DNA of 64,000 nt from Eledone cirrhosa (lineage: Eukaryota): positions 178,870,001-178,934,000 of the forward strand of contig OZ024740.1 in NCBI GenBank assembly GCA_964016885.1, given 5' to 3'. The translations under genes were made by a program, and so were the position numbers. The notes below the pieces were generated by a model. That model was given only the letters and a program-made list of their open reading frames with translations, was not told the origin of the DNA and ran no database searches. Below are positions 2,893-58,850 of this stretch, in pieces. Within the stretch, counting starts at the first letter, position 1, and every line of letters begins with the position of its first letter.

Positions 2893-3327
2893 GTGTTATA
2901 CTTTGGGAGGGTCATGTTGCCAATAAGAAACACACGCACCAGTTGCTTTCACTTCAATTTATTATATATTTATAAATTTATAAATTTATAAATTTCTGGT
3001 TGGTTGGTTGGTTCCACAACCAGATAGTTGTTTATATATAGTCATAGTTCTTTCGTCACACACTCTGTGACCTCTTCAGTGACTGGGGATTCCTTTCTTT
3101 GTTTCTGTGACGAAAGAACTATGACTATATATAAACAAATTTCTGGTTGTGGAACCAACCAACCAACCAGAAATTTATAAATTTATAAATTTATAAATAT
3201 ATAATAAATTGAAGTGAAACAACTGGTGCGTGTGTTTCTTATTGGCAACATGACCCTCCCAAAGTATAACAATATCGGTTTCAACACACGATTTCAGATA
3301 AAGAATCTTGCTAAACAAATTCAGAAA

Positions 3328-3330
<3 letters not shown>
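2893..3330 (+). mobile_element. Foldback+tail mini-element family C (PLE pLTR derivative)
   Basis: ~165-bp inverted arms plus a tail, in (TA)n. The same sequence brackets the GIY-YIG ORF at 33091-34062. Confidence 0.85.
3040..3084 (-). ncRNA. Minimal type I hammerhead ribozyme
   Basis: Minus strand: AGTCA CTGAAGA G GTCACA-gagtg-TGTGAC GAAA GAAC TA TGACT (stem I, core, stem II, GAAA, minimal stem III, CUA triplet). Confidence 0.8.
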
Positions 3331-3363
<33 letters not shown>

Positions 3364-3368
<5 letters not shown>

Positions 3369-5857: not shown

Positions 5858-6642
5858 GTGTTTTTTTGTGTGTGTGTGCGTGTGTGGCTTCTGGCATACG
5901 TGGGTGAAGAAGAAGAAGAAGAAGAAGAAGAAGAAGAAGAAGAAGAAGAAGAAGAAGAAGAAGAAGAAGAAGAAGAAGAAAAAGAAGAAGAAGAAGAAGA
6001 AGAAAAAGAAGAAGAAGACATGTATGTATAGGCATATATATATATATAAGCATGTGTATATATAAAGACGGATATGTGTGTATGTGTGTGTGCGTCTGTG
6101 GACTGAGCAAGAGAGTGTGAGAGTGACGAGCAAGAGGATATGATAACATAAATACAATGCAAAGATGACCTTAAGATCAAATCAGTATATAATGAAATAA
6201 CCTGATACGAATGTATTCATGAGAAGTGCTGGAAGAATTAGATGTATCATTTACAGATTGAACAAAGCTTTTGTCCTTCTAATAAATGCAATATCAATTT
6301 TGTTCCGAATCTTGATTGTAATTCCGCCTGTATTAATTCCTATGTTCAGATCTCTTTTATCCTCCGCTTGTTTTTGTGTCCATTAACAAGTTTCCGATGA
6401 CTCTATACTACATTGTCTATATTTTATTAATGTGCCCAGATGCACAAATCTCTCACAAGCAATTAAACCATCAACCAATGAACAGCCATATTTCTCTCAT
6501 TGTTTTATTCATTCGTTCCCGCTCTCCTTCTAAATATACATAAATATACATACATACATACATACATACACACATACATACATACATACATACATACATA
6601 CATACATACATACATACATACATACATACATACATACATACA

Positions 6643-13088: not shown

Positions 13089-14420
13089 GTATATACATAT
13101 ATATAAAAAAATATAAAATATAAAATATATTAAAAATATTAAAAATATTAAAAATATTAAAAATATTACAAATATACATATAACGGCACATAGAGATACA
13201 CAGTGTGCTATACATGAAAGGGTGCGCCCAGTTGTATGTGTCTACAGAGATGTTGTTACGTTGCGACCATGGATCAATCCACGTATGGAGTTTTCACGCA
13301 ATGCCACATAATAGTATTACAGTATATAGTATGCGCAAACCGTACAAAGAAACTACGTGCAGAATATATATAAAAAAAGCAGAAGGAACGTGTATGCATA
13401 TGAGGTAGAACACAAGATAATTATGAGATACACACGTGGGTCTGCATACGGAAAATACATTAGGTATTACAAAAAGGAATACATAGAGGGTATGCACTCT
13501 ATATTGAAAAGATACACCTGCAGTGGGGTGCGTGGACCGGCCATACTGGAGTATGTCACTGTGGTTGAGGTATAGTGTCTTATTGGTGTAAGGCATTTGA
13601 CCGAATATCAGTGGAATCGGAAATAATCATGACGTGCAGACACCAGAGAAGATGCACACTCTCCGCATGGAATCCCCCGGGCAGCTCAAGCTAAAAGTAG
13701 GCGGCGGATCGCACGGCGACCAGAGTGGCGAAACGGGTCAAGAGATTAGACACCATACCCATTTGACTTTATATGCCCCGTGGGGTAAGCCGAAGTAACC
13801 CAGGATGCCCACCCGACTCTGCACGTGACCCTAGGCAAGGACATCGCCTGAGCCGGGAAAGGTTGACTCGGATTCCATGCTATGTACTGTAATAATATGA
13901 ACGCCCATTATGTGGCATTGCGTGAAGACTCCATACGTGGATTGATCCATGTTTGCAACGTAACAACATCTCTGTAGCCACATACAACTGGGCGCACCCT
14001 TTCATGTATAGCACACTGTGTATCTCTATATGCCGTTATATGTATATTTGTAATTAATCTAGCTGTCGTCTGTTCGACAGCGTAGACGTAATTCACTTCG
14101 CGCAGAAGTTTTGTTCCAATTTATTGCGGAAATTTTGTAAGTTTAATTTTAATTTTGATACTATTTTGTAGCTTGACCCCCCGTCTGAACTGTCAGGCGG
14201 TGGGTCAGCTCATCTTCGCCCCTCCCAGGGGTGGAAAACCTATTTTCAAAATGTTGTGGCATAAAATTTCAATCGTCTGGCAGAAATGTTAAACGAAGCT
14301 AACGAAAATAGTGGTGGGGGACAGCGGTAAGAGTTGTAAGCTCGCACGCTTTAGTCCCCCCTTCCTTCCCAACTAACATCATAGAGAAGGAAAGAAAAAA
14401 TAAAATAAAAACAGACGAAT

Positions 14421-16162
14421 ATGCGGAGATTGATTCCAACAACAACAAAAATTTGAAAGAATTGCATAACAATATTAATACCACAAACAAAGAAACAACA
14501 AACACAAAAATAACATTTGAAAACAACATCATAACAGAAAGCAAAACAGACGACAAAGTCAACACCAATAATATCTCGTTTGCACAAACAACAAAAAAAT
14601 CTTTAACATATATACCTGAAAATATTTCAGATGTGGCACAAAGAATAAAAAACGCCAAACATTTCATAACTCAAGGGGAAAATGGAACCTTATCGGTAAA
14701 AATGCCCCCAAAACTCACCAAAGATATTGAAAATCGGACGGTCGTTTTCCGCACCATCAACAACATCTCAAAAAAACCTCAACAACCAACACAAGCAGAA
14801 ATTAAAGCAGTACTTAGAGAAGTACTTAATGAAGCCACTTTCATAAGAAGAGATAGGCTGTATGGAAGCCTAGCCATTATTATGAAGAACGAATCAGCGG
14901 CAAAAAAATATGCTTTGTCGCCGATTCGTTCGACAAATTTTACCTTTTATCCATCTTATATGGGTAAAAAAACTCAGCGCATATGGCTGGATGCGATGAT
15001 GCCAGATATGGACCACTGCTGGCTCATAGCTGGCTTCATCGATCCAGCGAATGACAACGTGATTTCCATTGGGAAAACCACAGGCAATGCGTTCAGTGGA
15101 ACAGGTATAGAACTTGTAGTGCAAATGAAGCCTGAACGCATTGCCCAAATACCCGACAGAATCCTATTAGAGGGCCACGGGTATATAAACATTAGCGTGG
15201 AGGGGAGAAGGCCGTCCTGTCATATCTGTGCAGGCAGAGGGCACCTGAAGGTGGCTTGTCCCCAACTCAACAAGAAGAAAACCCTGCTACCAACACCAGC
15301 TCCACCACCACCACAACAGATAAACAAACAACAAAACTCAGTCCCACCCAACCCGTCCCTCAGTAAAACTACACCACCACCACAACACAAACAGACACAA
15401 CACATTACCCAAAAACAAAACACAGTCACACCCAACCCCTCACTCAATAAAACAACACAACCACCGCAGCCACAACACACAACACAGTCTAACATAGTGA
15501 CATCCCTCTCCCCCACAAAGAAAACCAACACGGAAACATTACCATCAAGCATACCCCTTCCCTCCAACACTGAAGATAACCCAACGAATTCGGAGGAAGA
15601 AACGGAGTCCTTCAGACAGATTAAAAGGAAAAAAAGAAAACATGTGCAAAACACACCAGGCCAAACAGCCCCTACCCAAATGTCAACACAATCCAACAAA
15701 ACACAAAACACCCCTCCGGCAACAAACAAAACCAAACCTGCCCCTCCCCTCTTCGAAACACTCACACCATCCGAAAAAAAGACATTACACTATACTTACA
15801 TCAACAGAAACAATAATAAATTAAATGAACTCATAAACAATAACCCTTCGGTACAAACCGAAGAAGTAAACTTTGTTTCTTCAGAATACTACCCATATTA
15901 AAAATTAATAAAGATCCCAATGAACCTCTACCAAAAACTAAAAAAGGATTTTAAGGAGGACGTAGGACCACCCTCTGTCAAACCCATAAACCGCGTCCTC
16001 CTAAAAAGCTTTCCCCCTCCCCTTCCCCTCCCCAACACAACTCCAAACACCCCAACCCCACCACACACTGACGACCCCACACCACCACAAGACACCCCTT
16101 CACCCAACACCCCCGACCCCATGGAAGTCGTGCGACCCGAACGCCGGGAAGCAGAAAGGTAG
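14421..16162 (+). pseudogene. Tx1 ORF1 (gag-like, CCHC zinc knuckle, Pro/Thr/Gln-rich tail) with a premature stop
   Basis: CHICAGRGHLKVAC knuckle; ORFs 14453-15901 and 15920-16162 are in the same frame, separated by one TAA; the probable ATG at 14421 is one base out of frame. Confidence 0.8.
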
Positions 16163-16195
16163 GTCTCTACACTCTCCTTTGGCTTTGCCGCCCAT

Positions 16196-19100
16196 ATGGA
16201 TGTGTTAAGAGTAGGATGTTTGAATGCACGTGGCCTGGGCTCAACTTGGAAGCAAGCAAAGCTTCTAAATGACCACAGCTCACGTGGTATAATTGTAATG
16301 GTTATCTGTGAGACTCGGATCAGCGTCGTGCGGCAGCTGGCCCCTACCTTCGATGACTTTGAGGTGCATGCATCTCTCTGTCAACCTGGAGGTGGGGGTG
16401 GGGTTGTCGTACTGCAGGAAAAACACCTGGGTCTCGCCGTACAGGTTGTTCACTCGGACCCGGTAGGTCGTTTGTTGGTGCTAGACGTTGGCAGTAGTGA
16501 AATTGCGGCCTTGAGACTGTTCGCCGTCTACTCCCCTTTTGGAGCTGAACGACCCGACTTGTTCCAGTGTCTGGAGACTTTTCTTGGAACGTCGCATTCC
16601 CTGCTTCTAGCGGGGGATTGGAATGACATCCTAGATGCACGTTGGGACTATACAGGAGCATCTCCTAATAGAGGGGGGTGTAACAGCCTCAAGGGGTTAC
16701 TCGACCGTTTTAACTTGGTCGATAGATATCGACTAGATTTTCCAACTGTGCCAACCTGGACTTGGACGAACCACAGTGGTCAATCTAGATCGTACTTAGA
16801 TAGATTCTTAGTTAGAAGTAAGGATAGGGACATATTAAGCTGTCCAGAAATGCTCACGGTTGGCTATACAGATCACAAATTAGTGACCTGCGTAGTCAAT
16901 CTCGAGAAAACACATAGACAGGGTCCCGGTTACTGGAAACTTAATTTGCCCTTACCGGCAAAAGAGGCTTACAGAAACCGGATTAGCAGATTAGTTAAGG
17001 AGAGGTTGACGGGTGCAATCGTCAACAACCGATGGTGGGCATCTCTCAAAAGAGAGATTAGAACAGATTCAATAAGTTATAGCAAGATGTTAGCTGCCGA
17101 TAGGAATAGGAACGAGAAAGAATTAACAGGTAAATTAGAAGAGGAAATCAAGAGCGAAGATGTGGCCAGAGTGCTGGCATCGAGGACGGCCTTGAGCCAG
17201 TTTTTCGATGCAAAGCACGAAGGCTGCGTCATTCGAAGTAAAATACGTGCTCTAGGTAATGAGGGGGCCAAAGCCGTTGGCTGGGCTCGCGTGACAGAAG
17301 CTAAGAGTGGAAATCGATCCACCATCCGGTCTTTGCAAGACGAGAATGGACGGGTGATCCGGGAGCCTAAGCAGATGTGCGAGGCCTTTAAAGGCACATT
17401 GCCCGATTGTTCGGGGGAGGCGAGGGTCCGGGCGGGGACGTGGATTTCGGTCCATACCTCGACGGCCTGCCGCGTCTCTCGAGCGAAGAGGCAGAGTCCT
17501 GCGAGGGACTAATCTCGGCTGAGATCGGCGATGCGCTGAGCCAACACAGCAGACACAAATCTCCAGGTCTCGATGGTATACCTTACGAACTTTATTTAGC
17601 AATGCCGGTCTTCTTCTCCGAACTCCTCGAAGCAGTCTACTGCAATTGGCAGCAGAACGGGAGAATTCCTTATTCTGTAGCCAAGGGCGTAGTCTCGCTG
17701 GTGAGGAAGGACGAGAACGAGGAAGATAGTATAAATAATTTTCGGCACATAACCCTGCTAAACACAGAGTTAAAGATTTTGGCCAAGGTGTTAGCAAAGA
17801 GGTTGGCGCTTGTCGCGGGTGGCCTGGTGGGAGATGCGCAGACATGTGCTATCCCATCCAGGTCCATTCACGACAACCTCCACCTCATGCGATACATCAT
17901 AGAGAGGGTTAGCAACAAACCCGGCTTCGGTGGGGCCCTGATCAACTTGGATCAGTTTAAGGCGTTCGATAGGGTCGACTATGGTTACCTGGATGCGGTG
18001 CTAGCGGCGGCTGGGTTCGGTCCTGTTTTTAGACGCTGGATCACTGCCTTACATAGCAACCACATCTGTTCTAGGATCAAGGTGAACGGCTACCTTTCGA
18101 AGCCGTTCGAAATCACACGATCCATTCGACAGGGGTGCCCTCTCTTCTCCCTTCTGTACGTATTGACTCTCGAGCCTTTACTGAGGAAGTTGGAGTTGTT
18201 GCAGGGTATCCCCCTGGAACCAGGATTGAGCAAAGCGGTGTCGGCTTACGCCGATGACGTAACAGTAATGGTATCGACCGACTCGGAGATCGAGGCGATC
18301 GGTACCTTACTGGAGGAATACGAAAGTTTGTCAGGAGCGAAACTGAACCGGGAAAAATCCATCGGGCTGCAACTCGGAACGTGGAGAGGCAGACCGATGC
18401 CTCCCGACGGTATCGTCGGACACTGGATGGAGAGCCCGGTGAAGTTGATTGGGGTCTGGTTTGCACTAACCCAGAAATGGGCCAAGTGTAAGCTGTCCCT
18501 AAAAGGTCGGACGGAGGTGGCGAACATTTACATAGCGTCCGTCACTTACTACCGCCTGACTGTCGTGCCTTGCCCTAAGGAAACACTCACCACCATGGAA
18601 CGCATGCTCTTTCAATTTCTTTTGAAGAATCGCCCTCCTATGGTGAGAAGATCCATCTGCTGCCAACAACCTTCGAAAGGAGGGCTGGGGATGCCGTGGT
18701 TGATGATGCGTAGGCACGCATTAAGGCTACGGCACCTACAGGTATTCCTCACTGGTCAACTGGTGTGGGCTCCGTTCGTGAAACGAGCCTTTCCGAGACT
18801 CGTCTCGCTCACCGAGTTGCAGTCCTGGGTCAAGCAAAGATCCGGAAAACTGGGCGACTGGTACACTGAGTGTGCCCAGGCGCTCAGGGCTCTCTGGCAA
18901 GCGGACCCGGCCATCGGTGGAGAATCCACCTCGTCATTCTATAGAGGGATGGTGGCTAGCAGGGGCGATGACACCCTTGGAGAGTCGCTGGACATGGAGG
19001 AGGACGAACAGGCCAGCCTGTTCGGTAGGACTTTCGGCCCGGGACCAATGGACAACTTCCAGAAGTCACTGGCCTGGCAGTGCTACCGGGGGGCTCTACC

Positions 19101-19575
19101 CGTTCGAGAAAAGCTCTACAGACACGGGCGCCCGGGCAGGGATCCCTCGAAAAAGATTTTCCCTAGATGCATGCGTCACGAAGAAACCGTTGCTCACGCA
19201 TTGGTGCACTGTCCGGGCGTGGCTGATCTGTGGGGCTACGCCGAACGGCTGCTGTCGCGGGTGGCGCCGATTCGATTGACCGCCGAGTCCGTGATGACAA
19301 TCAAACCGCCTCCCCTCTTCACAAAGGAAGCAAAGGCGGTTTTTCTGTGCGTAATAGCGATGTTGAAAGAGGTTGTTTGGTGGACACGATTGAAAGGTCT
19401 GAGGTCAGGCAACTTCCTCTCTGGCCATAGTCTGGTCTACTTCTTCCGATATCACTTCGGAAGAAGGATAAGAATGGAGAGAGAGGTGCTTGGCCACAGG
19501 CAGTTTTATGAAAGGTGGGTGATAGTGGCGAGAATGGCTCGTATAAATGTGCCTTCTCTGTATACCATCCTGTAG
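16196..19575 (+). pseudogene. Tx1 ORF2: APE endonuclease, reverse transcriptase and C-terminal Zn motif, frameshifted near 17390
   Basis: LNARGL, ICETR, AGDWN, SYLDRF, TDHK (APE); KSPGLDG, DQFKAFDRV, IRQGCPL, AYADDV (RT); RC..HEETVAHALVHC. Confidence 0.92.
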
Positions 19576-23484: not shown

Positions 23485-25681
23485 TATACCAGAATGGTTG
23501 ACATTAGCACAAACATTACTGGTCCCCAAGAACAAAGACACCCACTTGGCAAAAAACTACCGACTCATTGCATGCCAGAACCTTATGTATAAGATGTATA
23601 CAGTCTGACTGAACCTATTCCTCCAAGATCACTGTGAAAACATTATCAGAGCCATAGAGAGGCTGTCTTCGTCTTGGGCTACTATCATAAGGTTAAAGAC
23701 AGAGAGGGAGGACTCTATTTTCACTGATAAAATAAAATATTGCAGTGGTATATTTCAGGGGGACAGTCTCTCTGTGATATTATTCATCTTGTCATTAAAC
23801 CCCTTGTCCTTTCTGCTCAAGAAATGTGAGGGATACATCATTGGCTCATAGGAGGACAGAAATACGAACCTAACCCATAATTTCTCTGTAGACGATCTGA
23901 AACTCTATGCCAAGAACATGGATGGGAGGAAGAAAAATCTTGACCTGGTTACACCGTTCTCAAAGGATATAGGAATGGTGTTTGGTCAAGATAAATGCTC
24001 ATACATGACTGTAAAGCGGGGAAAAACAACAACCCAATCTAGCAACATTGTCATCAATGGCCTAACTGTTTCACCGATATCTGATGAGGACTGCTACAGA
24101 TACCTGGGGATAGATGAGAACATATCCTATAATGGTATCTGTAATAAAGAACGCATAACCAGGGAATACTACACCCGATTAAGAAATATATGGTCATCGG
24201 AACTCTCTAAGCAAAACAAAACAGTGGCTCACAATGTGCTTGCTGCGTCTGTCCTAACACCAACGTTTGGAATACTCAATTGGACGATAGACGAAATCCG
24301 AGCAGTTGATGTTGGAACTCGAAAGATACTGAACAACACCGGAAACATCCACATCAACAGTGACATAGACCGCCTTTACTTGAAACGTAAGCAGGGAGGC
24401 AGAGGCCTAACATTAGTCCAGACAACATTTGAATGTCGCATCATATCTCTCTGACAACATCTACGAAGCTCGAAGCGTAGGAGCCCGTTTCTCGAACAAG
24501 TCTATATGCATGAAACAGATAAGATCAAGAGAGTTAGGAAGGAACTCCTCGAGAGATATTCCCTGCGTGATAATCAAACACTCAGACCCAGGGATGTCGC
24601 TCAGCAGTATCGCAGTGAATCCATGGATGAAAAACTGCTTGCTTATCAGCAAAAAAATCATGCATGGATATGTTGCCAGGAAGCTCCAGAGTGAGAGTAA
24701 TATAGATAAGGAAAGTAGCCTATCTTGGACCAACAACGGCTATATTGGCTCCCACTTTGAAGGATACGCCTTTGCAATCCAGGAACAGGAGATTAACACG
24801 AAATACATGATTCACAAAAGAGATAGGGATGCAGGCAAAACACCTAGATGTGATAACAAGTGCAGACTCTGCAGAACTAACATCGAGGATATCACCCATG
24901 TCATCAGCAGCTGTCCAAAGATGTCATCGCGGTACTATCTACCTATGAGGCATGATGTAGTGGCCAAAACACTGTACAATGCAGTTCATAAAAAAGATAG
25001 CCCCGATAATAAGCACATTAAAAGCTACAGCAAGATGGAAGACATCCATGTACATAATATGAAAGAGTACTGGTGGAATGTTCCAGCAAAACCCCAATAA
25101 AATGCAGGCATAACAGACCAGCTATTATGATATGGGACAGGGAGAAGAAAGCATGCACAGTAGTGGAAATTAGCTGCCCAGCAGATGCCAATATAATATC
25201 AAAGATTAGAGAAAAGGAGAATATTTATGCAGAACTGATGAGAAATCTGCAGATACTCCACCCTGATTACACCTTCAGATTCATGCCTGTGATTATCGGG
25301 GCACTGGGATATGTTAGAAACCGCCTCAATACACATCTTGAGAAGCTAGTCTTCACAAGAATTGAAAGAACACAACTAGTTAGGAAATTACAACTACAAT
25401 CCATTAATGGAACATTAAAAATATGTAAAACATTCCAAAAATGTTGCATCTAATAACTGCATATACACATGTTCAGATGCAAAGCATATACACATGCACA
25501 CATACAACTCAAAACATACACATCCACACATACAATAACATCCATATCTACACATGCATGCATACATACATATCTACCTAGTTGATGTTGTGTACATTCC
25601 AATGAGAGATTCTTGTGTCTATGTTAGAAACCGACTCTCTCTCTATTGGTAAAACTTTGTGAAATTATAAAACCAGAAGAA
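23483..25681 (+). mobile_element. 5'-truncated, decayed R4/Dong-like RLE retrotransposon in (TACA)n
   Basis: IFQGDSLS, VDDLKLY (RT), DIDRLYLKRKQGGRGL, CRLC..EDITHVISSC, RHNRP..VVEISCP (RLE); several stops and frameshifts. Confidence 0.9.
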
Positions 25682-32226: not shown

Positions 32227-32646
32227 CTATCCGTTAGGGTATAATGTGGGGCTGTAATACAGGAAAGTTTTGTGTAATTTTTGTTTACAAGCCGAAATTG
32301 CCTCAGATTTTTTGTTTAATATGTGGTCTTTGGCGTAGAGTTTTTCCAGGGCCTCAGCGGCGCAGAGGTCGCATGGTCTTTTATTTCCGTTATACGATCT
32401 AGCCCTAGCTAGGATCTCCCAGTGTAACTTATATTGGGTGTGGTTCTCTTTCAGACCCCAGCTATAAGCTGAAAGTGACGTCATATTCCTTCTTAAAGAG
32501 TTACGAAAAGAATAGGTACGCATGTAAAGACGCTGCTTGAATCTATTGGCGGTTAACCCTATGTAGGCCCTACGGGACGTGGGTGTTTCAACCTTACATT
32601 TGTAGACAATGTTATTATCGCGGTCTCTTTGGATTTTAGTCTTCAA
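32227..32646 (-). pseudogene. PLE GIY-YIG endonuclease fragment (Penelope/Poseidon type)
   Basis: IVYKCKV...AYIGLT..RFKQR...TSLSAYSWGLKE...WEIL...CDLC..E...LNKKSE..SAC. Confidence 0.88.
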
Positions 32647-32658
32647 ATTTATTATTAC

Positions 32659-32734
<76 letters not shown>

Positions 32735-32741
32735 CTATATA

Positions 32742-33050
32742 TATATTAAGACAGGGGGAAGAAAAAAATGGCTTCACTTGTGCTTTCAACAAATTTATTT
32801 TCTTCACAAAATCCCAAAATAATTTTTTTCCGGATTAAAAAAAATTTTATAAATTGAGTCGTTGGTTGTTGGTACCAACAACCAACGACTCAATTTATAA
32901 AAAACATTTTTTTTTTATTTTTTCTAATCCGGAAAAAAATTCTTTTTGGATTTTGTGAAGAAAATAAATTTGTTGAAACCACAAGTGAAGTCATTTTTTT
33001 CTTCCCCCCTGTCTTAATATACATAACTGTACCAAGGATTACACACATTT

Positions 33051-33055
<5 letters not shown>
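32742..33055 (+). mobile_element. Foldback+tail mini-element family G, spacerless palindrome centred on ggtacc
   Basis: Arms ~32742-32873 / 32874-33020 plus a ~35-nt tail; (TA)n flanks. Confidence 0.8.
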
Positions 33056-33090
<35 letters not shown>

Positions 33091-33094
<4 letters not shown>

Positions 33095-34062
33095 ATACTT
33101 TGGGAGGGTCATGTAGCCACTAAGAAACACACGCACCAGATGCTTTCACTTCAATTTATTATAATAAATTTATAAATTTAGACATTTATAAATTTCCGGT
33201 TGGTTGGTTGTTTCCACAACCAGATGATTGTTTATATATTGTCAAAGTTCTTTCGTCACACATTCTGTGACCTCTTCAGTGACTGGGATTATTTTCTTTG
33301 TTATTGTGCTGCTCCATTGTTCTGTCCTACGCCATCTTGTTTTTGTGTGTGTGTTGTGTGCTTAGTTTGCGCATGTGTTACATCCGGGTGTCTGTGTGTG
33401 TTTATATTTGTTTATTTATTGGTTTATTTACATGTTACTGGTTGGTTGTTTGTTCTATGTGCGTGTGTGTTTTCATTTTGACCTTAATTGTAAGTTGTGA
33501 TGTTGCTGTTCCATTCATGTTTTCTATTTAATATTGTTGGAGTTCATTTATGTTTATTGCCGCTGTTTATTTTTTCTATTTAATTTTGGTGGATTTCATT
33601 TATGTTTATTGTTCATTTATGTTTATTGCCTTATGTTTATTGCCTCTGTCTAAACATTGCGTCTTTTCTGTGTAGATTCTACTTTTATTTCTATGTTCTC
33701 TAATTTACCCTTATGTTCTATTTTAGCATGTACACATGATTTTTCACTATCTTGAAGGTCTCGCCAGTGTTCATTTATCCGTTCCCCTATACTACGAGCT
33801 GTCTCACCTATGTACACTATATTCTTATCTCTACATTGTTCTTTTGTACATCTTATGCTATATACTACATTTCTAGTTTTACAGTTAATATGGGGGCTTA
33901 ATTTACAGATTATACATTTCTTATCTATACAGGGAGGTCTTATTATAATAAATTGAAGTGAAAGCAACTGGTGCGTGTGTTTCTTATTGGCAACATGAGC
34001 CTCCCAAATATAACAATGTCTGTTTCAACACACGTTTTCAGATAAAGAAATTCAGAAACGAA
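33091..34062 (-). mobile_element. 5'-truncated PLE: GIY-YIG ORF, 3' pLTR with hammerhead (33241-33284) and inverted family-C tail
   Basis: ORF 33650-33967 CIIC..NCKTRNVVYSIRC..C..VYIGETARSIGERINEH; its termini are the family C sequence of 2893-3330. Confidence 0.85.
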
Positions 34063-34080
34063 ATATATATATATATATAT

Positions 34081-34410
34081 AGGTAAAAAAGAAAGGAAAA
34101 TGCTGACAAATTTTTCCCAGTGAAAAATAGTTTAATTAGGAATAAGTATAAATTAGTAATAAGTATTAGTTAGTAATCAGCTTTAGTTATAAGTTTTATA
34201 AATGAACCACCGCTCCGCGACGTAGTTTCTTCACTCACTCGATTGAGAAGTGACGCGGCCGTCGCCGAGCGGTGGTTCATTTATAAAACTTAAAACTAAA
34301 ACTGAATACTAACTAATACTTATTACTAATTTATACTTATTCCTAATTAAACTATTTTTCACTGGGAAAAATTTGTCAGCATTTTCTTTTTCTTTCACAC
34401 CACTATTTTT
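34081..34410 (+). mobile_element. Foldback mini-element family H
   Basis: ~125-bp arms (34090-34215 / 34267-34395); the minus-strand centre has a hammerhead-like 3' half gaaac-tac-gtc-gcgg. Confidence 0.75.
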
Positions 34411-34411
34411 T

Positions 34412-34530
<119 letters not shown>

Positions 34531-35103: not shown

Positions 35104-36516
35104 GTAAATATACATATATACACATATAAATACAAGAATACACACCAAATTATACATCAACACATACATATATACATACATACATACATACTTAAACAAG
35201 CATATATCAATATATATCTATGAATATATTATCTGAAAGATAGAATTGGGGTTCCCGTTATTACAACAATATGTAGAAAGTGTATAACTATTAGGTAGAA
35301 AGAAAAGGCTATGATTGAGTATTAGAGGTTGATGGAATGAGGGTAGTCAGAGTGTGTGTGTTAAGGGTATGACAAAGGCTTTGTGTTTAAAGTGAATATG
35401 TGAGTGTTTTTTGGTTGTAGATAAAGGTATGGTTAAATGTTAAAAAGGAAGAAGTGTTCAAAGTCTCTAATAGGTTATGAATGGTGGAAAGAATGAAAGT
35501 GGTCGGTGTGTCTGTGTGTCTGTGTTAAATGTATGAAAAAAAAAAGGGGGGGGGGATATAATGAAAATAAATAAGTGGGTGTTTATTGTGTGCAATGATT
35601 GTAGTTAAATACTTGTGTTCATAAAGAGATCAGAGTTTTGAGTGGAAGAGTTAATTCGTAAAAGGAGGAAGTTCGGGGTGGTTGAGTGTCCAAAGGTATA
35701 TTATACCAGCTGCAAAGAAGATGTGATTTCATGTATGGACAACCTCTGAATATATCATTATTAGAATTGAGGCAAATATTAGAGATTGCGATTCTGTATT
35801 TTTCGGTTATACACAAAGAACATTTCTTTGTGCCTTTCTGATAATCTTTTGAGTAGTCTAAAATGGACCAATCAATCAAATATGGAATCTTACATTCTTT
35901 TAACTCCCACACTTTCTTTGTCAGCGCCGTAGTTGTCCTTTTGTCTGGGTGTTTGAAGGAAGCGACATGTGCGTAGTATTGAATCTATCGGACGTCATAC
36001 CCACATATCGCTCAATCATAGCTGGTTGGTTATTCTCAATAGGTGTTACTTTAGCCTAGTATGCGATTGATTTCGTATTACCTTGTAAAGGGCATTCTTC
36101 AGCTTTTCTGCAGCTACATTTATTGATATTCCTTTATTGATATTCATGTTGGTAATCTTAGATTTCATGGATGGGCAGCAAGAGTAGTTAAGTTTAACTA
36201 AATTTGTATTAAACATCTTATCATATCTACGATGTTGGGGGAAGTGTTTGTCTACAAGTGTTTATATATAAATATATTCTTGTCTGTATTTCTTATTCTA
36301 TATGAGTTTATATAAGCATATATGTGCACGGATAATTATGTATGCATTTCAATATTTTTTGTCCTATTAATTTATTTTTATTCTATTCCGAGATTATAAA
36401 TATGTCTGTATGTTTGTAAGTATTATATTTTTTATGTGTACGTATTTGTGTGTGTATGTGTGCGGGTGTGTGTATGTGAGTGTTTGTGTGTGTTGGTATG
36501 TGTGCATGTCTATGTA

Positions 36517-39620: not shown

Positions 39621-39798
39621 AATATGGTTTTATAAATATAGTTTCCATTTGTTAATATCGTATATCTACTCCAAATACTTGTCGAGTGCTTTATATCAGT
39701 TATAAAATTATTTGCTTTTTGTATCCCAACAATTTAAATAGAACTTTTGCATATACTCTGCTCCTGTATTGTTGAGCGCTTTACATTATAACTGGAAA

Positions 39799-42020
39799 AT
39801 GGAATTCTTTAAGATCTCTTCTTCTCTAAAAGACATAACTCTACCTAGGAATAAAGATTTTATTAAACAATTAATAGAAAAATCAGACTCTTTTATAAGA
39901 AGAATCAGGTGGCGTGCTTTCCACTTCGATAAATCTAATCTAAATGAAAATGTTACAAATCTGGATAAAATCTTCAAATCTAAAAAAAATCCACCCCCCA
40001 ACAAACTACTAAGGGATTTTGAAAATGATATCATATCTATCATCCAAAGCATCAAATTCAAAAACAACTTCAAAGGCCAAGATTACTTAAGAGATATTAA
40101 GGATAATATTGAAAACTTGGAGAAAACGGAGAAAATTCTAGTCAAGTCGGACAAAACTAATAATCTTTACGGAATACAAAAGGACATTTATAACGACCTT
40201 ATATTGAAGGAACTAAGAAAGAAATACAAAGTAGCAAATAAGGACGAACTTGAAAAACTGAATACAGATGCCTCTTGTATAATGCATGAACTAGACATTG
40301 AAAATAAAACACCACCCTTCATGCCAAGGAAACCTAAGATTAATATGAAGGATCATAAAAGAAACTTTGAAAATGATTTAACAGTCAGATTAATTGCACC
40401 ATCTAAATCTGACCTGGGCAGACTTAGCAAAAATATTCTAGACAGAATAATACAACAAATTAAGAATTTACCTAATTTATCTTACTTAAAATTATGGAAA
40501 GGGACTAGTGAGGTTATCGATTGGTTTAAAGAAATTAAATATAACTATAATAATAAGTTTATTCAGTTGGACATTGCTAACTACTACTCATCTATCACTC
40601 CTAATCTACTGAATAAGGCACTAACTTACGCATTTAAACATACAGACCTAACTAGCAATGAAATGCACATTATATTATCGGCACGGAAAACATTAATAGA
40701 ATTTAATAACCAACTCTGGACTAGGGCAGATAGAAATAATAATTTCGACATAACTATGGGATCTTCAGACTCAGCTCAGGTAACAGACCTTGTGGGCCTA
40801 TTTATAATTAATTCTCTACATAGAAAAATACCAGGTGCAACCGGAGGCTTATATCGTGACGACATGCTTTTACTTATTGAAAATAATAGCTGTGAACTAA
40901 ATAGAAAAAGAAAACAAATTATACAATTTTTTTAATTACCTTAATCTAAAAGTAGAAATAGAGAATAACCATAAAATAGTCAATTTTTTAGATGTAACAC
41001 TAAATCTCAACACATGTCTTCATTATCCATTTCACAAACTAAATGAGAACTTAAATTATGTCAATGTTAACTCTAATCACCCCCAGATCAGTTAAAAATA
41101 CTATAGTGAACTCTGTTCAAGAACGAATTTCAAGAATTTCATCTAATAAGAATATATCTGATGAAAAAGCGCATTATTACAACGAAGCGTTAGGTAGAGC
41201 TGGGTATAGAAATAAAATTAAATGCATCGATAATAATAATAATATACAAACTAACCAAAATAATAACAACTTTAATTATGGTAACAATTTTAACAACTAT
41301 AATAGAAAACATTACAATAATTCCGAAAGCCGAAAAAGAAATAGAACTAGGAATATATTATGGTTCGCTCCTCCTTTCTCACTAAATATTAAAACCCCTA
41401 TTGCTAAACTATTCTTTAAAGCTCTTGACAAACGCTTCCCTAGAACACATAGATATTACTCAATTTTTAATAGACATACTATAAAATTAACTTACTCTTC
41501 CACCAAAAATTTAGCGCAAAATATTAATAGAATTAATAATAAAAATTTAAAACCTAACCAAAATACCAATAATAACCCAAGCAATATTCAATCGAATAAT
41601 TGTAACTGTAGAAATAAATCCAACTGTCCGTTAAATAACAACTGCTTAGCTAAAAATGTAGTTTATAATTGTAATGTTAAAACTAATTAAAATTATGTCG
41701 GTTTTACCTCCACAGAGTTTAAATCCCGCTTCAATAATCATAAAAATTCTTTTACAGATCCAAACAAAAAATCTTCAACTTCGCTATCTAGCCTATTATG
41801 GGACCTAAAACGAGATAATGTTGAATATTCGCTGATTTGGAATATTATTTCAAAAGTTACTCCTTTTAGTTCCTCTTCAGAAAATTGCGATCTTTGTATG
41901 GAGGAAATATTCTTTATATTAAAGACCAAAAATTCCCTTAATTTAAGGAATAATTTATTCAGTTGCTGCAGACATAGATTGAACTCAACGTTTAAATATA
42001 AATATAAATTTAAAATGTAG
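39799..42020 (+). pseudogene. PLE RT + GIY-YIG polyprotein, frameshifts near 40930 and 41080, stop at 41688
   Basis: KSDKT, KDHK, RLIAPSKS, LDIANYYSSI, TMGS, GLYRDD; NCNCR..CPL..CL..NVVY..*NYVGFT..FKSRFNNH..CDLC. Confidence 0.92.
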
Positions 42021-44736: not shown

Positions 44737-46591
44737 AAGAATGAATAATAACAGGTAGACATCATAAAAAAGGTAATTTATTCCGTGTGCTTACAAATGT
44801 TTCCACTGTGGTAGTACAGCCTAGTTATGCTATGTGCAAATTATCAACTATTTGCAGAACTCAAATATCAAATGCTGTGACCACTGTATCATCAGAGCAG
44901 AATGGTTAAAATGTACAATGTAAATACCCTTAAGTGAGGTTATTGGAGAAGATAGAGTAGAAAAGGAAGAGAGAAAAGTAGGGGAGAGGGAGAAAGAGAG
45001 AAAGATATGCAGGGGTTGGAGAAATAGGATAGAGTGGTTTGTAGATATCTTAATCAAAATGTTGTAGGAGTTTTATTATACTGGTAACTTTTAGAGAGAT
45101 GCGTTGATAGTCAAGGTTGGAATTATTTATTGCCCCAGGGGGCAGGTTCATAGATGTGGAGAGGGAGGGAGGTAGGTCAAAGGCGAGAGAGAGAGAGAGT
45201 GGAATGGATATAGAGGGAGAGATAGAGAGAGGACAGACGAGGTCTATGGGGTGGCTGAACTTTGGGTTCGTAGTAGTAATCCGCGAATTGCACTGAGTTA
45301 CCATTTATAGTGATAAGCAGGGTAGTGTGGGAGAAGAGAAGGTGGTTTGCTAGAAAGCGATGTTATAGTTACGGGTTCGAATGTTAAGTTATTTTATAGT
45401 GAGAGAATTTAGCTTTTAGTTTGTGGTTGCAGTATAATGATCGTTCGATTCTATCGTTAAGTAGTTTATTTTTGGATTTTAATATGTAAAAGAGTTCAAG
45501 GTTACATAGCCTACAGTACTTCAATCCACTCCGATATGCACTTGCGCTGGAAAGTATATCCCATTTTAAGGTGAACTGTTGGTTGCGTTCACGGAGTTGC
45601 CATGTCTTGTTGGCGAGCGTGGTCACAAAACGGTGAACAAGATGTTTGATTGAGAATCGATGACGGTACCGGCGAGATTTAAACGAGGTGGTGGTAGATC
45701 CGATGTAATACCATTTCTGGTCGTTCGATTCAACCATGCATTGGTAAACAATGTTGGACTTTATGCATTCATTCTTCAATGGACATCTTTCAGGTAGATG
45801 GCAGTTACATTTTTTGTTGTGGGTAGCGGGTATACCATGGATAGGTTGTGATAGCAGTACAGGTGGGTTGTGTAATACCCGTCTCCCATTTAGTGGTTGG
45901 GAGGCAGATATTACGTTCTGCCCATGTGTTACCAAACTATTTTGTTTTGTAGTGTTGTTTAATTGCTTTAAGTTAAGTTTTTTTTATGTATGCTTCAAGG
46001 TTTGGTGCCGTGGAGTATGATAGTCTAATAGTTTTAGAGTTCAGAATTTTACTGTATTTATGGGAACTAGGGAAATGCTTGTTGATTAACTTAAAGAATG
46101 AAAGAGATAGTTTTGTACTAATCGAAGCATTAAAAATGGGATTATACCAGATATACTTTCTACAACGTGATTTATTTGGTGATGATTTTCTATTATTAGT
46201 ATGTCTGGTGGTACTGTATGTGTGCGCTTATATTTTAGTCCCCCGGTTACGTATTCCTTGATTTCGTGTAGAGCTATGTGTGTTATGGAGATTCTTATCA
46301 ATGTATTCTATTGTATCCCGGTGGTCGGCATTCCTTAATGCATCATTATAGTATTCAGCGAGTTCACTAAAAATTTCAGAGTCAGACGATAGGCGAGAGA
46401 TTCTAAGAGAAATACTACGGGGAACCGATTTGATCATGGAGAGTGGGTGGTTTGAGTTAAAGTTGATATACGTAAGGTTCTCATTTATCTTGTGGAAGGG
46501 TCGTATCAGTCTGGTATTTAAATTAAGAGTTACGTCCAGAAAATTTACTACTTTAAGATTGTATTCGTATGTTATTTTTAGACCCAGTTCA

Positions 46592-46595
<4 letters not shown>
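44737..46595 (-). mobile_element. 5'-truncated PLE (RT C-terminus, GIY-YIG, 3' pLTR) flanked by (TA)n
   Basis: VVNFLDVTLNL..PFHK..YINFNSNHP; CNC..CPLKNEC..NIVYQC..YYIGST..FKSR..CRLCNLE. Confidence 0.9.
44788..44899 (-). ncRNA. Hammerhead ribozyme with extended stem II
   Basis: Minus strand: TGCT CTGATGA tacagtggt...accacagtg GAAA CATTT GTA AGCA. Confidence 0.75.
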
Positions 46596-46650
<55 letters not shown>

Positions 46651-47042
46651 GCATATATTGGCGCTCTCGTTTCGTTCAGTTTTACCTTCCATTACAGTTG
46701 ACACACTTTGGTTTGTAGCATTTTCTGTCCCTTTTAAAATGTTTTTCTTATTTCGTCTTTATTTGTCTAATTCACCTAAAGGTATAACTTATCCTGTCTT
46801 TGTTCCTTATGTTTTATTGCGACTCGAAGGACATAGGAATAAACTATCAAATTTGAAAATTCGAAATTTAGTGATTCTCAAATGTTGACTGAGGAGATGG
46901 AACTGTCCGTATTTCCCTTATTTTTCGCCATATACACCCTCATCCGCCGCTCCTTCAAAAAAAATGTGTGTATGTCGTGTATATATGTGTTTGTGTGTAT
47001 ATATGTATACATTAGATATTTTTGCACTATAACGGTTTCTTA

Positions 47043-54296: not shown

Positions 54297-57200
54297 CTTG
54301 AGTCTCAGTCATTGATGTTAGTTAACTGGAAAGTTTGTTGAAATGAATATCAAGCCAATACCTGCAGCCTCAGATATTCAGGACGTATCGGAGGGTTCTT
54401 GCTGTTCCCAGCAAGCATGCCTTTTGAAGCGTTCCAAAAAGCGTGAAGGGGCCGATTTTCTTTAACCATCCCTGGAAACTTTTGGAGATAGTCCCTAGTG
54501 CGCCTATGACAATCGGGATCACTTTGACTTCATGGCAGTTCCAAATCCTTTTTACCTCCTACTTTAAGTCCTGGTATCGGTTAATTTTCTCCCTCTCCTT
54601 CTCTTGCACTCTCGTGTCGAATGGGCAGGCCACATCCACAATCAGGCACGATCTTTTTTCTTTGTCCACAACCACCAGGTCAGGTCTATTGTGTTCCAGT
54701 TTCTTGTCCGTCTGTATCCTAAAATCCCACAGCACCTTCACCTGATCGTTCTCTATCACCGCCTCTGGCTTATGCGCATACCATTTCTCAGAATGTGGTA
54801 AATTGTTTACTTTGCACAGGTACCAATGGATCACCCTGCCCATCACATCATGTCTCCAGCCCTTATAGTGGGTCTGGGCCAGGTGTTTACACTCGGATAC
54901 AATGTGAGCCACAGTCTCTTCTCTCTCTCCACAGATCCTGCACAGTGGGCTAGCCTCCTCCTTGTAAATGTGGTGTTTCAATCACTTCGTTTTGAGGGCC
55001 TGCTCCTGCGCAGCCATTAACATTCCTTCTGTAGCCTTTTTAAGGTCTCCTCTTTTCAACCAGTTCCATGTCTGTGGATCTCTAAATTCAGTTTTCTCAA
55101 AGAAGGTACTATGAAGGGATTTTTCCTGAAGGCTGCTCTTTCTCCTTGATGTTATTTCATCCTTGGACATCCCCTGGCCTATTGTCCTCTCCTTCAGTAC
55201 AGCTCTGAGCATTGGCTCCTTACTATCAGTCACGTATTTGTGTAGGTTGTTTTTCTCCATCTGAACACAGTCCTCTATGCTGATAAGACCTCTTCCACGC
55301 TCAGATCTCCTTAAGTAGAGTCTATCGACAGCACTCCTCTTGTGGAACATATTGTAGATAGTCAATAGCTTCCTAGTCTTCCTATCCATTTCTCTTTGTT
55401 CAGCAACATTCCATCTCAGAATTCCCGCACTGTACCTAATAATAGACACAGCTCGGGAATTTACTGCACTTATGGCATTCCTACTGTTCAGATGTGACTT
55501 TAATACGCTCCTTACTCTCCGAAGGTATTCAGTTCTTATCAATTCCTTCATTTTTTTGTTCTTGGTGTCATCAGCCTCCAGAACCCCCAAATACTTGTAT
55601 CCTTCTTCAGAGTCAATTTCTTTTATCATCTCACCTGTTGGTATCTGGATTCCGTTACTTCTGCTCAACTTACCCCTCCTCATCACAATGACTCCACACT
55701 TACTAATACCAAATTGCATACATATATCATTGCTGAAAATACGGACAGTGTCAACAAGCACATCCAACTCCTTCTCACTCTTCCCGAAGAGCTTAAGATC
55801 GTCTATGAAGAGGAGGTGATTGATGGTAAGCCCTCCCTTTCCCAACCTGTATCCTGCTCACACTTTTCGCAGTACACTGGTCAGGGGCATCAGGGCAAGG
55901 ACAAACAACAGAGGGGACAGACTATCTCCCTGGAAGATACCTCTCTTGATCTTCAGGCTTTCCAAGGATTCTCTAGTTGATGTTAACTCTGTTTCCCAGG
56001 ACTTCATACTTTTGCCCAACAACTGCCTGATGTTATCTGCCACCTTGAAGATCTCCAGGCTTTTGGTGATCCAAGAATGAGGCACCATGTAAAATGCCTT
56101 TTTGTAGTCTATCCATCCCATGGCAAGACAAGTGTGTCTCCTCTTGCAATTCCTCATTAACATATTATCAATAAGTAACTGGTCCTTTGTACCACATGAC
56201 TTCTTTCGGCATCCTTTCTGTTCGTCCGGTAACAAGTTGTTTGTGTGGAGGTGATGGTAGATTTCCTCAGACATAATGCTTCTCAACAGTTTCCACATTA
56301 CGGACAGACATGTGATAAGTCTATAGTTGGTAACATCATTACCCTTGATTCGGTCTTTCATTATCAGAACTGTGGAACCTTTTGTCAACCACTCTGGTAC
56401 CTCACCTGACATCAAGCAGTCATTGACCATGGTTGTCAGTTTCGGGTGGAGGGATGTTATGTTTTTAATCCAATATCCCTGCACACCATCTGGGCCAGGT
56501 GATTTCCAGTTGGTTAGTTTGGGGGCCTGCCCCTTAAGAGTTTCAACTGTGATACTCAAATCAGTTTGTTGGCGTGCCTGTTCACTAATCTCCTTCTGTA
56601 CTGTCTCAATCCACACTGCCTAGTCATTATGTTTAACATCCTGCTTCCATATTCCTATCCAGAATGTTTTAGTTTGTTCCGCCTCAGGGATCAAGTCGTT
56701 GCTTCTTTCTTTCCCTTCAAGCTGTCCAAACAGCATCTTCTGGTTGTTGTCGAACATGCGGTTCTGTCTATACTGGCTGACTATGTTCTCGTATCGCCTG
56801 ACTTTTGCACTTTTTGCTACAATGCGTTGCTTCAGTTCCTCTATGATAATACTTAGCTTTTTCCTCCTAGTTTTGTACTTTATTTCCAGTCTATTTTTAG
56901 TGTCTATGTTTTTTAGTGTCCCATTCAGTAGGGACTCAAGCTTTCCAATGTCATTTCTCATTTCCCTGATTTGACCACTCAGTCGTTTCTTCCACCAAGG
57001 CTCTGCTCTTTCTTGTCTGTTGTTTGCTCTCGCTTTTATACCAAGTATTTTCCTCACCGTATTTGCTGTTGCTTTGAGGATATTGTTGCACTGGTGAAGG
57101 CTCCTCGCCTCAAGGTATGGGATGACTTTGTTTACCTTAGCTGTTGTTTCTTTTAACTTTTTCCTGTCTACAAATCTTAGGTTCATAGGTCTCCCACTAT

Positions 57201-58850
57201 CATTGTTCAATTCATCTACCACTAAGTTTAGGATATCTACCAAATCTTGTCCTAGCCCGTCAGCATTCATCTCCTCAGTGGCCGTATCTCTGTTCCAGGT
57301 ATTATTTATCTCAGCATTCAGATCATTGTCTGTTTCGGGTGGTTCCTCCATTCTCTCGACCTCTTCACCTTCATTTCCCACTGGCTCGTTTGCCTGGCAT
57401 ACTCCACCCTCCATCTCCAAGCTAATCTCTCTGCCCAGTTCCTCCAGTTCCAGCTCGCTTATCCATCCCATTAGTCCTTATTACCAGAGCCTGCCCGGCC
57501 AGTTTTTGTTCATCTAATTTAAATGGAGCAATCTCGTTCCAGATGTTATGCATCCTTTTCCTATAGCCTTTCTGCTTGGGGTTACTCTTCGGGTAACATT
57601 GCATAACAGTTCTATTCAATTCTTTCGTCCAGTTGGTTGTGGTCCCTTTCCTTCTTCTTCTTCCTCCGACACCAGCAGTATTTCGTTGGCAGCCAGGTCC
57701 CTGCTGCTGAGCCAGGGAGCACCTGTTGGGTGAGAGTCTGTCACATGACATTCTAGTCTCCATTTCACCGTTATTCGAACTGTTTAGGTTCGACATTTAA
57801 ACACTCTTATCGAGGATTGGCGAATGTATGGTTACATAACCACCGGTGAATTACTTGTCTCCGGTGGTTTCGTCACTCCACGTGAATTTTGTGTGGCATT
57901 ATCACGCTGTAGACGAACTCAAACAAACAAACAAACAAACAGGCAGAAAAAACCCAAAAAATGAATAAGCATAAATTTCATTGTAATGTAGTGTTTGAGT
58001 GTCTGACTTAGTTTTTCCCTTCCCTTCTCTGTCCGTCCGTTTGTTTTTCACTTCATTTTTATTTCCTTTACGTTTTTCGTTGTTGCTGTGCTGCTTTGAT
58101 TTTGATTTTTTTTGTTTTTTGTTTCTTTTGTGTTTTTTTTGACCGGGTCATCAATTCAGTCTATTTATATATTTTGATGTTTTCCTCTTTTAGTGGGAAT
58201 TCTACAATGTAGCAGCGGATAGCGGGAGAGAATAGCGGTGGTAGTGATACTGAGGCAGCGGCGGCGGGGGGGGGGGGGGCGGTGCTGTGCTAGCAGCAAG
58301 TAGCAGGAGGTAGTGGGTGGGAATAACGACGGTAGCGATAGTGAGGAAGCGGTGGTGGTGATGTGGTCGTATTACTTTGTTAAAACTAAAACTTGATTTT
58401 GATTATTGTTTTTTGTTTTTTTTATTATTTTGATCGGGTCATCAATTCAGTCTATTTATATATTTCGATGTTTTCCTCTTTTAGTAAGAATTCTACAATG
58501 TAGCAGGGGGTAGCGGGAGAGAATAGCGGCAGTAGTGATATTGAGGCAGCGGCGGCGGTGGCGGTGCTGTGCTGGCAGCAACTAGCAGGAGGTAGTGGGA
58601 GAGAATAGCGGCGGTAGCGATAGTGAGGCAGCGGTGGTGGTGATGTGGTCGTATTACTGTAGTGATGGTGTTGAAGTTGGAGTAGAAATTTGAGTCGACT
58701 TGACCAGAGTTTTCATCGTCGTAGTGGTGGTGGTATTGGTGGTGAAATTATCTTTAGTGAAATTATCGTTAGTCGCGTGTATGTGTTGACATTTATTGGA
58801 ATTAAACATTTTGTTAAAACTAAAACTTGAGGGAATGGTAATAGTAATTA
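54297..58850 (-). mobile_element. Near-full-length R4/Dong-like element, copy 1 (disrupted ORF 54370-57796)
   Basis: NWTKELN..VMQCY..GYRKRM (N-terminus), WKSPGPDG, IFQGDSLSP, LFIDDLKLF, CRIC..ETVAHIVSEC, HNRPDL..IVDVACP; (TAA)n at the 3' side. The 5' boundary is uncertain. Confidence 0.92.
58141..58657. repeat. ~290-bp tandem duplication in the 5' region of R4 copy 1
   Basis: gaccgggtcatcaattcagtc...gtggtcgtattact occurs at ~58141-58376 and ~58432-58657. Confidence 0.8.

Follow-up and report, generated by a model that had tools for sequence, protein, structure and literature searches.

The layout of inverted PLE insertions that carry a tail on one side only is already published. In the accessible parts of the papers on Pen2a_Av (PMC3846280) and of Craig et al. 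2021 (Fig. 2, PMC8557442) partial tandems occur together with an inverted 5′-truncated copy and a one-sided tail, and canonical PLEs with a C-terminal endonuclease (EN) are described there with an ORF start in the pLTR, a tail of 30–40 nt made of ORF sequence, a hammerhead and (TA)n targets. The same position of the ORF start, with the tail as ORF sequence, is given for Pen2a_Av (PMC3846280) and for Poseidon_Ac (PAc) of Anolis (PMC11167929). According to the available text of Frangieh et al. 2024 (PMC11167929), PAc has two RT start sites in vitro, which lie in the 5′ part of the ORF and flank the tail, and AT-rich targets are cut on both strands, hammerhead cleavage not being needed; the steps after priming were left untested there, and how inverted one-tailed insertions form is named as an open question in the accessible text of Craig et al. 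(PMC8557442).

Here we describe two such insertions, copies A and B of one family (family C), in a 64-kb window, the whole stretch of DNA analysed, from the Eledone cirrhosa genome, which was searched over 3.0 Gb. Family C has the same arrangement of ORF start, tail, hammerhead and (TA)n targets, with a longer tail of 58–60 nt. We consider it probable, at roughly 70%, that copies A and B are 5′-truncated head-to-head insertions of one EN+ PLE, that both cut (TA)n strands primed RT on one donor RNA, at the tail end and 60 nt upstream of it, and that the RT belongs to a distinct lineage near Nematis and Hydra and not to Neptune.

Copy B (33090..34063), which the initial annotation had delimited as 33091..34062, is a truncated inverted PLE insertion, and copy A, an ORF-less hairpin at 2893..3330, is a truncated inverted insertion of the same PLE. 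In both, the left end falls on one and the same base beside (TA)n, as had been noticed, position 33091 lying one base inside this end, and both copies adjoin (TA)n on both sides. Their assignment to one family is borne out by identities of 90% over 230 nt between the left arms and of 86% over 146 nt between the right arms with tail. The long tail-less arm of copy B (33090..33941, minus strand) holds an EN fragment, the 3′ UTR, the hammerhead and the first 7 ORF codons, is 84–86% identical to the full unit over 864 columns, and has its outer end at the upstream AATATCG site, against (TA)n. After an inversion junction with a 2-nt overlap (33940..33941) follows the short tailed arm (33940..34016, plus strand), a 77-nt inverted copy of the left-arm end (inverted repeat of 33090-33167, 94% over 79 nt) with the ORF ATG at 33995, and then the tail (34017..34063, plus strand), which corresponds to ORF codons about 8–27 and ends at the second AATATCG against (TA)n. 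The tails of the two copies match, as stated in the initial annotation, except that the tail of copy B lacks 13 nt of the family tail. In copy A the tail-less arm (2893..3109, minus strand) contains a complete hammerhead with its core at 3079, and the tailed arm (3106..3330, plus strand; tail 3273-3330) only the 3′ half of it, the arms meeting in the junction TGTG (3106-3109). A hammerhead is present in the left arm of each copy, and is complete only there. That the inversion points differ could be confirmed, as the arms of copy A reach to about -229 and -278 from the tail end and those of copy B to -136 and -841.

The EN of copy B is a broken GIY-YIG fragment (33650..33941, minus strand; Pfam PF01541) whose translation matches the Pfam GIY-YIG model with an E-value of 5e-6 and 27.1 bits against a cut-off of 22.6. 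The arms had been taken to bracket a GIY-YIG ORF at 33650-33967. The EN is there, but it is part of the long left arm instead of lying between the arms, and past 33941 the reading frame runs backwards through the inverted arm. The fragment retains the linker Cx4CxxC-x7-C, VVY...YIGET and the CCHH residues; its 5′ side is cut, it carries in-frame and frameshifting deletions, a frameshift precedes the E and N motifs, and the motifs after 'STQK' are gone. Judged from its sequence, this EN is a dead fragment that cannot be functional because of the deletions and the frameshift before the last catalytic motifs. Copy B itself is a dead and ordinary insertion, but a real insertion of a known element class.

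Comparison across the 64 kb revealed no family copies besides A and B in the window. Genome-wide, the junction pattern of copy A occurs at 2 places in 3.0 Gb and that of copy B at 1; because the junctions are so rare, the two hairpins are one-off, separate insertion products and not a self-spreading family. These counts bear on a reading in which the hairpins spread by themselves as a non-autonomous mini-element of MITE or SINE type, and copy B captured a piece of EN. The near-equal size of many short hairpins in a young subfamily, where 15 of 35 inverted pairs are nearly equal and spaced 186–240 nt, and the recurrence of the commonest junction at many sites would fit it. However, arm lengths in the family form a continuum up to full units, the EN of copy B runs into the 3′ UTR without a break, just as it does in full units, and the recurrent junctions are accounted for by a common RNA start (see below), so that this reading is very improbable and for A and B largely refuted.

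Having established copies A and B as separate insertion products, we turn to their parent element, a PLE unit of 4.0–4.4 kb with a hammerhead and a single ORF encoding RT and, C-terminally, a GIY-YIG EN. The EN fragment of copy B is 86–94% identical to 149 other places among 150 scored, out of 26,012 first-look candidates, and extension of these matches leads into an RT upstream in the same frame. At one locus (L089), a partial tandem, the unit measures about 4.03 kb and its ORF begins 81 nt ahead of the tail end. The ORF start thus falls inside the pLTR, which makes the tail part of the ORF, and in 26 of 30 loci holding the 5′ region of the ORF a pLTR piece of variable length stands in tandem before it. 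Uninterrupted ORFs of 1265 aa (L328 1077-4904, minus strand) and 1318 aa (L324 5620-9606 and L325 1043-5029) were found in the young subfamily, whose units measure 4.3–4.4 kb; these copies are full-length and lie in tandem or inverted arrays that are at least 99% identical. Tandem units of this subfamily are 99.95% identical over 2152 nt, and together with the intact ORFs this suggests recent activity of the family. As a majority-vote mapping reference is frameshifted in a region rich in N, T and Q, all statements on the ORF are taken from real copies. The initial annotation had proposed that the hairpins are PLE insertions and that an autonomous element could be reconstructed. Both points hold: the ends of the family are those of a single, consistent RT+EN element, its unit was recovered, and the opposite case, in which the ends surround unrelated captured sequences with no consistent PLE ORF, was looked for and did not hold. 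Two variations on the theme were noted in passing. The copy at L240 (823-2139) has a long low-complexity block rich in N, T, Q and H in the ORF before the RT, like the asparagine-rich inserts of Adineta Penelope families, and L074 (near 3753) and L083 (near 8385) represent a sister family with the same ORF start and a diverged tail.

The hammerhead of copy B (33241..33283, minus strand) was recognized by motif scan, family variation and fold. It consists of stem I GTCA/TGAC, the core CTGAAGAG, a 5-bp stem II, GAAA and a 2-bp stem III, with a predicted cut between 33245 and 33244, and its layout agrees with the accessible part of File S2 of Craig et al. In 149 arms the five common family variants (-232, -218, -214, -209 and -202) affect loops of the hammerhead, the cut base or positions outside its stems. 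We thus predict a minimal type I hammerhead in the pLTR. Rfam returned no hammerhead family, either at gathering score for the whole window or by E-value for 2990-3130, giving sub-threshold hairpin matches only; minimal hammerhead motifs are described as weak when monomeric in the available text of PMC4209133.

The outer ends of the insertions were then analysed genome-wide. Exact end patterns yielded 11,695 tailed and 12,330 tail-less matches with 0 for reversed controls, and the same two arm-end classes, tailed and tail-less, were seen among the 122 ends listed. AATATCG occurs at only two sites in the unit, 60 nt apart, and these are the two outer ends. Most family ends lie in (TA)n, within which target-site duplications are unreadable, and 72 of 78 located tail ends (from 85 sampled) adjoin TA repeats. 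Both start sites contain AATAT and could pair with a (TA)n primer, in contrast to PAc, whose start sites are non-homologous to the cut DNA in the accessible text (PMC11167929). Pairing to the target may help to choose the start site. It does not alone determine it, because a longer TA run at -209 is unused as outer end in all arms examined. A third priming site at -209 was considered and dropped: the control pattern matched an internal TA expansion of the young subfamily instead of ends, so that only the local arm counts bear on this site.

To describe how the two end classes combine, we used 85 of the first 100 tailed ends listed on C1, with about 6 kb of flank, which collapse to 82 insertions. 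A tail-less inverted partner is present in 47 of these and a tailed partner in 3, while 23 are sense only, 4 have a truncated partner and 5 are complex. With ends as the unit of counting there are 47 tail-less and 7 tailed partners, which departs from free choice with p 1e-8. A set of 30 tail-less ends overlaps the first, many of its ends coming from insertions already counted. Here a tailed partner lies within 1.5 kb in 16 cases and at a greater distance in 2, and 3 ends face a tail-only piece (L136, L144, L146); for the other 9 the partner is not visible, truncated or unresolved, and a tail-less inverted partner occurs in none of the 30. Solo tail-less copies flanked by (TA)n exist as well (L138, L154). 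Within insertions the arms are alike: non-majority variants are common to both arms in 75% of cases (73% in unequal pairs) as compared with 24% between insertions, and divergence is 2.0% between the arms of one insertion and 5.8% between insertions. Arms of the same donor together with strict tailed/tail-less pairing make two cDNAs on one RNA the simplest reading, although shared variants are also expected from DNA copying of one arm or from later gene conversion.

The pairing counts also speak to a model in which the arms are primed on separate RNAs from the same locus, held by a dimeric enzyme, and in which the fixed ends result from the EN cutting its own DNA at AT sites instead of being RT starts. 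A dimer is predicted for PAc in the available text of Frangieh et al. (PMC11167929), and Craig et al. attribute the tail to EN-mediated resolution in the accessible part of their paper (PMC8557442). Both ends lie at AATAT, an AT-alternating site, and variant sharing would likewise be expected from same-locus RNAs. Yet such arms should choose their ends independently, which is at odds with the 47 tail-less against 7 tailed partners, and the TA run at -209 is not an outer end in any arm examined. We therefore regard two separate template RNAs as quite unlikely.

Arm lengths were compared in 45 insertions, left after removal of 2 duplicates (L229 and the second L233 end), 3 double-counted both-tailed entries having been removed earlier. 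In 20 of them, copy B included, it is the tail-less arm that extends further 5′, in 17 it is the tailed arm, and in 8 the arms end within 20 nt of each other; the arms do not reach the ORF stop in 20 of the 45. In unequal pairs the two lengths are uncorrelated (rho 0.15, p 0.37). No arm of an unequal insertion can derive entirely from its partner by copying, since the tail is found only on the tailed arm and the tail-less arm often extends further 5′. This limits an alternative according to which one cDNA snaps back and primes itself, forming a long palindrome from which the EN trims the tail on one side and whose arms become unequal by later central deletions. Self-priming has been proposed for PLE inversions (PMC3846280, accessible text), it explains donor variants common to both arms, and it also predicts the observed excess of near-perfect palindromes (8 of 45 as compared with 2.8 expected, p=0.004). 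The 20 insertions with a longer tail-less arm, the tail-only partners, the solo tail-less copies and the lack of correlation between unequal arm lengths all argue against it, as do the loop-free junctions described below, for which an intramolecular fold-back is sterically unlikely. On this evidence we consider snap-back unlikely.

Variable truncation points, part of the mechanism put forward in the initial annotation, are indeed found, as the inner ends of the arms vary. In that proposal a truncated first-strand cDNA underwent a template switch. The final join may be called a switch onto a second cDNA, but a single first strand is insufficient: a second, separately primed cDNA is needed because the tail-less arm extends further 5′ in 20 of 45 insertions and tail-only partners occur in 3 of 30. 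The inversion points vary between insertions, and microhomology at the junctions is weak. Of 17 insert-free junctions 14 overlap by at least 1 nt (42% expected), at 30 of 47 the arms seem to be parted by a gap or an insert, some of these being artefacts of later mutation, and an overlap of at least 3 nt is seen in only 4, all these counts being noisy as the copies are only about 95% like the reference. Short tandem re-copies of junction sequence at L336, L341 and L342 suggest that RT slipped repeatedly during the join. The same hairpin at L227 and L229 lies in a duplicated segment of about 6 kb that is 92–97% identical between its two positions, some 390 kb apart on C1.

The distribution of inner ends points to a start of the RNA within the pLTR. 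Of 179 inner ends 27 cluster at -325 to -297, and only 1 coincides with the hammerhead cut site (-213), which rules out hammerhead-cut RNA as the main template. In 14 hairpins of the young subfamily, picked for their near-equal size, both arms stop at -302 to -318. A pattern across a junction in the CA run had 74 matches at 45 junctions by hand count, and this pattern favours near-perfect palindromes of one subfamily, copies A and B not being of this type. The centre is GAC/GTC in 40 of the 45, GTAC in 2, TGCA in 1 and something else in 2. Blunt joins should give GAC/GTC half of the time, because cDNA ends in the CA run hold only G and T, which are unable to pair; 40 of 45 deviates from this 50% with p 4e-8, and there is no loop. 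The template base before ACACACAAAC is C, not G, and the extra G stands on the tailed arm in 5 and on the tail-less arm in 2 independent cases. A C added to one cDNA and pairing with G on the other explains all 40 GAC/GTC junctions, and this C could be cap-templated or result from non-templated addition. We infer a capped RNA start near -318, within the pLTR. Transcription start sites inside the pLTR are known for Penelope and Chlamys-3. In copy B the likely start region (33330..33352, minus strand), placed by the inner-end cluster and the extra-G junctions, comprises the CA run followed by AAGATGGCG, and the sequence of copy B reads through it. Located just downstream of the predicted start, AAGATGGCG resembles a YY1 site.

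In the two-cDNA model, the element endonuclease would open a (TA)n repeat on both strands, and the two ends so produced would serve as RT primers on the same donor RNA, one at the tail end and one 60 nt upstream. Each cDNA would then stop early or run off the 5′ end of the RNA, and the two would be joined by a few paired bases or by end joining. As both sites lie at the ORF start, ORF-less hairpins could arise from priming on the 5′ copy of the sites in a pLTR-initiated RNA, of which only about 320 nt would be copied, giving hairpins no longer than about 570 nt. If the 3′ copy, or a read-through RNA, is primed instead, the products would be EN-bearing arms like that of copy B and, when complete, partial tandems. 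In twin priming of L1, a single RNA is likewise the template for cDNAs started at the two target ends, and an inversion results when these are joined. L1 twin priming yields non-overlapping segments from a variable internal site, whereas in family C the 3′ region that is copied is the same for both arms and the two start sites are fixed. Two RT start sites flanking the tail and cutting of both strands have been shown in vitro for PAc (PMC11167929, accessible text), which belongs to another clade and has another linker than family C; its independence of hammerhead cleavage parallels the single inner end at the cut site here.

The RT and EN of the family were compared with those of described PLE clades. 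In the 1265-aa ORF of L328 the RT motifs precede the C-terminal EN, whose CCHH consists of two Cys between VVY and YIG followed by EH and HAKIEH. For the RT, Pfam gave only a weak RVT_1 match; telomerase RTs (TERTs) are the best fold matches of the predicted structure of the RT-EN part (pLDDT 77), and a sequence search of solved structures with the family protein found no PLE. Its nearest named relative is from Octopus vulgaris (65%), and the Atlas protein clusters matched by the family are all unnamed. Features of canonical EN+ PLEs that the family shows are RT with C-terminal GIY-YIG, CCHH, the tandems, inversion and tail of the pLTR, and the hammerhead, but it departs from them in having a fingers insertion of about 70 aa between RT3 and RT4, as canonical PLEs are without a fingers (IFD) insertion in the accessible text of Craig et al. 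(PMC8557442). The RT3–RT4 spacing is at least 110 in 109 of 109 measurable relatives (median 134; among 120 listed of 306 hits), whereas Nematis-like proteins have at most 75 (93 of 93) and 3 Neptune-type ORFs have 64. At 50% identity, 126 clusters score an E-value of 1e-30 or better with the family RT.

The initial annotation had suggested that the EN may be Neptune-like. Both share a Zn-finger-like linker before the EN (Cx2-5CxxC, here Cx4CxxC) and microsatellite targets. However, the spacer after CxxC is 7 residues in family C (6–11 in 70 of 70 measured relatives) and 23–24 aa in the 4 Neptune-type ORFs of the same genome, and the Neptune-type features DKG, PKIHK, GxAMG and lack of a fingers insertion all differ from family C, which has DKS, LRKDHK and GAAIG, a GG[AP]IG-type RT4. 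In the part of Fig. S2 of Craig et al. used for alignment, the linker resembles the Nematis rows and not those of Neptune. Neptune as identity of family C was dropped on linker alignment and motifs. Nematis is similar in its C-terminal EN with CCHH, its Cx2-5CxxC linker and its spacer, which is short in the three Nematis rows of that figure. It differs in having DKG, KTHK and a GL[AP]MG RT4 and in lacking the about 70 extra residues and the long stem of family C; KDHK replaces KTHK in 96 of the 120 relatives listed (306 hits). Hydra, as described in the accessible text of Craig et al. 2021, resembles the family in KDHK and YPSI motifs and (TA)n targets, and the hammerhead core of Hydra-1_oBim, CTGAAGAG, equals that of family C. 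In contrast to Hydra, which has no CCHH, has CxCX5C and DKT, and measures under 3 kb, family C retains CCHH and CxxC, is without CxCX5C, and has the fingers insertion, DKS and the larger unit. Naiad and Chlamys have an N-terminal EN and no hammerhead, unlike family C.

RT trees were calculated with motif-assigned proxies in place of named references (4 Neptune-type ORFs of this genome, 9–11 Nematis-like, 1 Poseidon-like and 4 Hydra-like sequences), with insert columns removed and some near-duplicate rows omitted. The family group forms one clade on a long stem branch (100/100 without Hydra, 98/97 with Hydra). It joins the Nematis-like proxies, and Hydra where included, against Neptune and Poseidon (98/95), so that an RT phylogeny, which had been called for, is available as a proxy tree and gives no Neptune-like placement. 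A union of family and Neptune is rejected (AU p=0.014) for the 4 proxy Neptune ORFs, all from this genome; Neptune is paraphyletic in the accessible text of Craig et al. (PMC8557442), and the proxies cover this genome's Neptune-type ORFs only. Without Hydra the family is sister to the Nematis-like proxies; with Hydra a union with Nematis is not rejected (p=0.14, long branches), and one proxy tree places the family as sister to Hydra (93/90), which may be long-branch attraction. As far as sequences can tell, the family RT may represent a distinct, possibly unnamed lineage near Nematis and Hydra that fits no described group well. The comparison being made via motif-chosen proxies, the family group may already sit among Repbase families or inside the Nematis of Craig et al.; their supplement text, in the accessible version with long sequence runs shortened, contains no GPIG and one unrelated DKSG (PMC8557442). 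Other PLEs of the same genome include Neptune-type families with long open frames (L295, L297, L298 and L094) and a Nematis-like family with KTHK and a short linker (L305).

Several further elements occupy the window. PLE fragments at 32227-32660 (minus), 35619-35984 (minus), 39742-42020 (plus) and 45384-46758 (minus), whose ENs had been classified as Penelope/Poseidon-type, instead carry the Hydra motifs printed in the accessible part of Craig et al., namely DKT, KDHK, the CxCX5C linker and C-terminal CxxC and CxH. Naiad was also considered as their identity and dropped on these motifs. The fragment at 39742-42020 is a near-complete, broken Hydra-type unit. Hairpin-plus-tail stubs of unrelated families, each single in the window, lie in (TA)n directly beside copies B (32738-33055 and 34088-34415) and A (3364-3610). 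Broken non-LTR retrotransposons were recognized by eye from translations at 14312-19575, 6534-7454 and 23609-25453 (plus) and at 54559-57796 and 59766-63190 (minus), one with ORF1, AP endonuclease and RT and several with RT and a restriction-like endonuclease end.

The accessible parts of the canonical PLE descriptions (PMC3846280, PMC8557442) state neither a strict pairing of tailed with tail-less arms nor a common donor of the two arms nor junctions with an extra G, and no paper found in our literature searches, which covered few subscription papers, states the pairing, the extra G or such a lineage. A bolder reading, possible but rather doubtful at present, would make family C a ninth clade of PLEs, unnamed and widespread, that lies between Nematis and Hydra, with C-terminal EN, hammerhead, a telomerase-like fingers insertion of ~70 aa and intact, very recent copies. 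Its insertions would then document the entire mechanism of PLEs, in which the two target strands start cDNAs at two AAUAU sites of a single capped RNA and a cap-templated C serves to join these cDNAs.

The value of these findings lies in the family and not in the locus. Family C makes the two-primer model directly testable, as it combines some 12,000 natural records with fixed start sites, a predicted start of the RNA and young copies whose ORFs are intact. A hammerhead-bearing lineage with C-terminal EN and a large fingers insertion would weaken this insertion as a mark of Naiad, Chlamys and telomerases, and such a lineage may link the isolated Hydra clade to Nematis. Family C thus offers a testable record of two-primer insertion and possibly an unnamed PLE lineage with intact copies.
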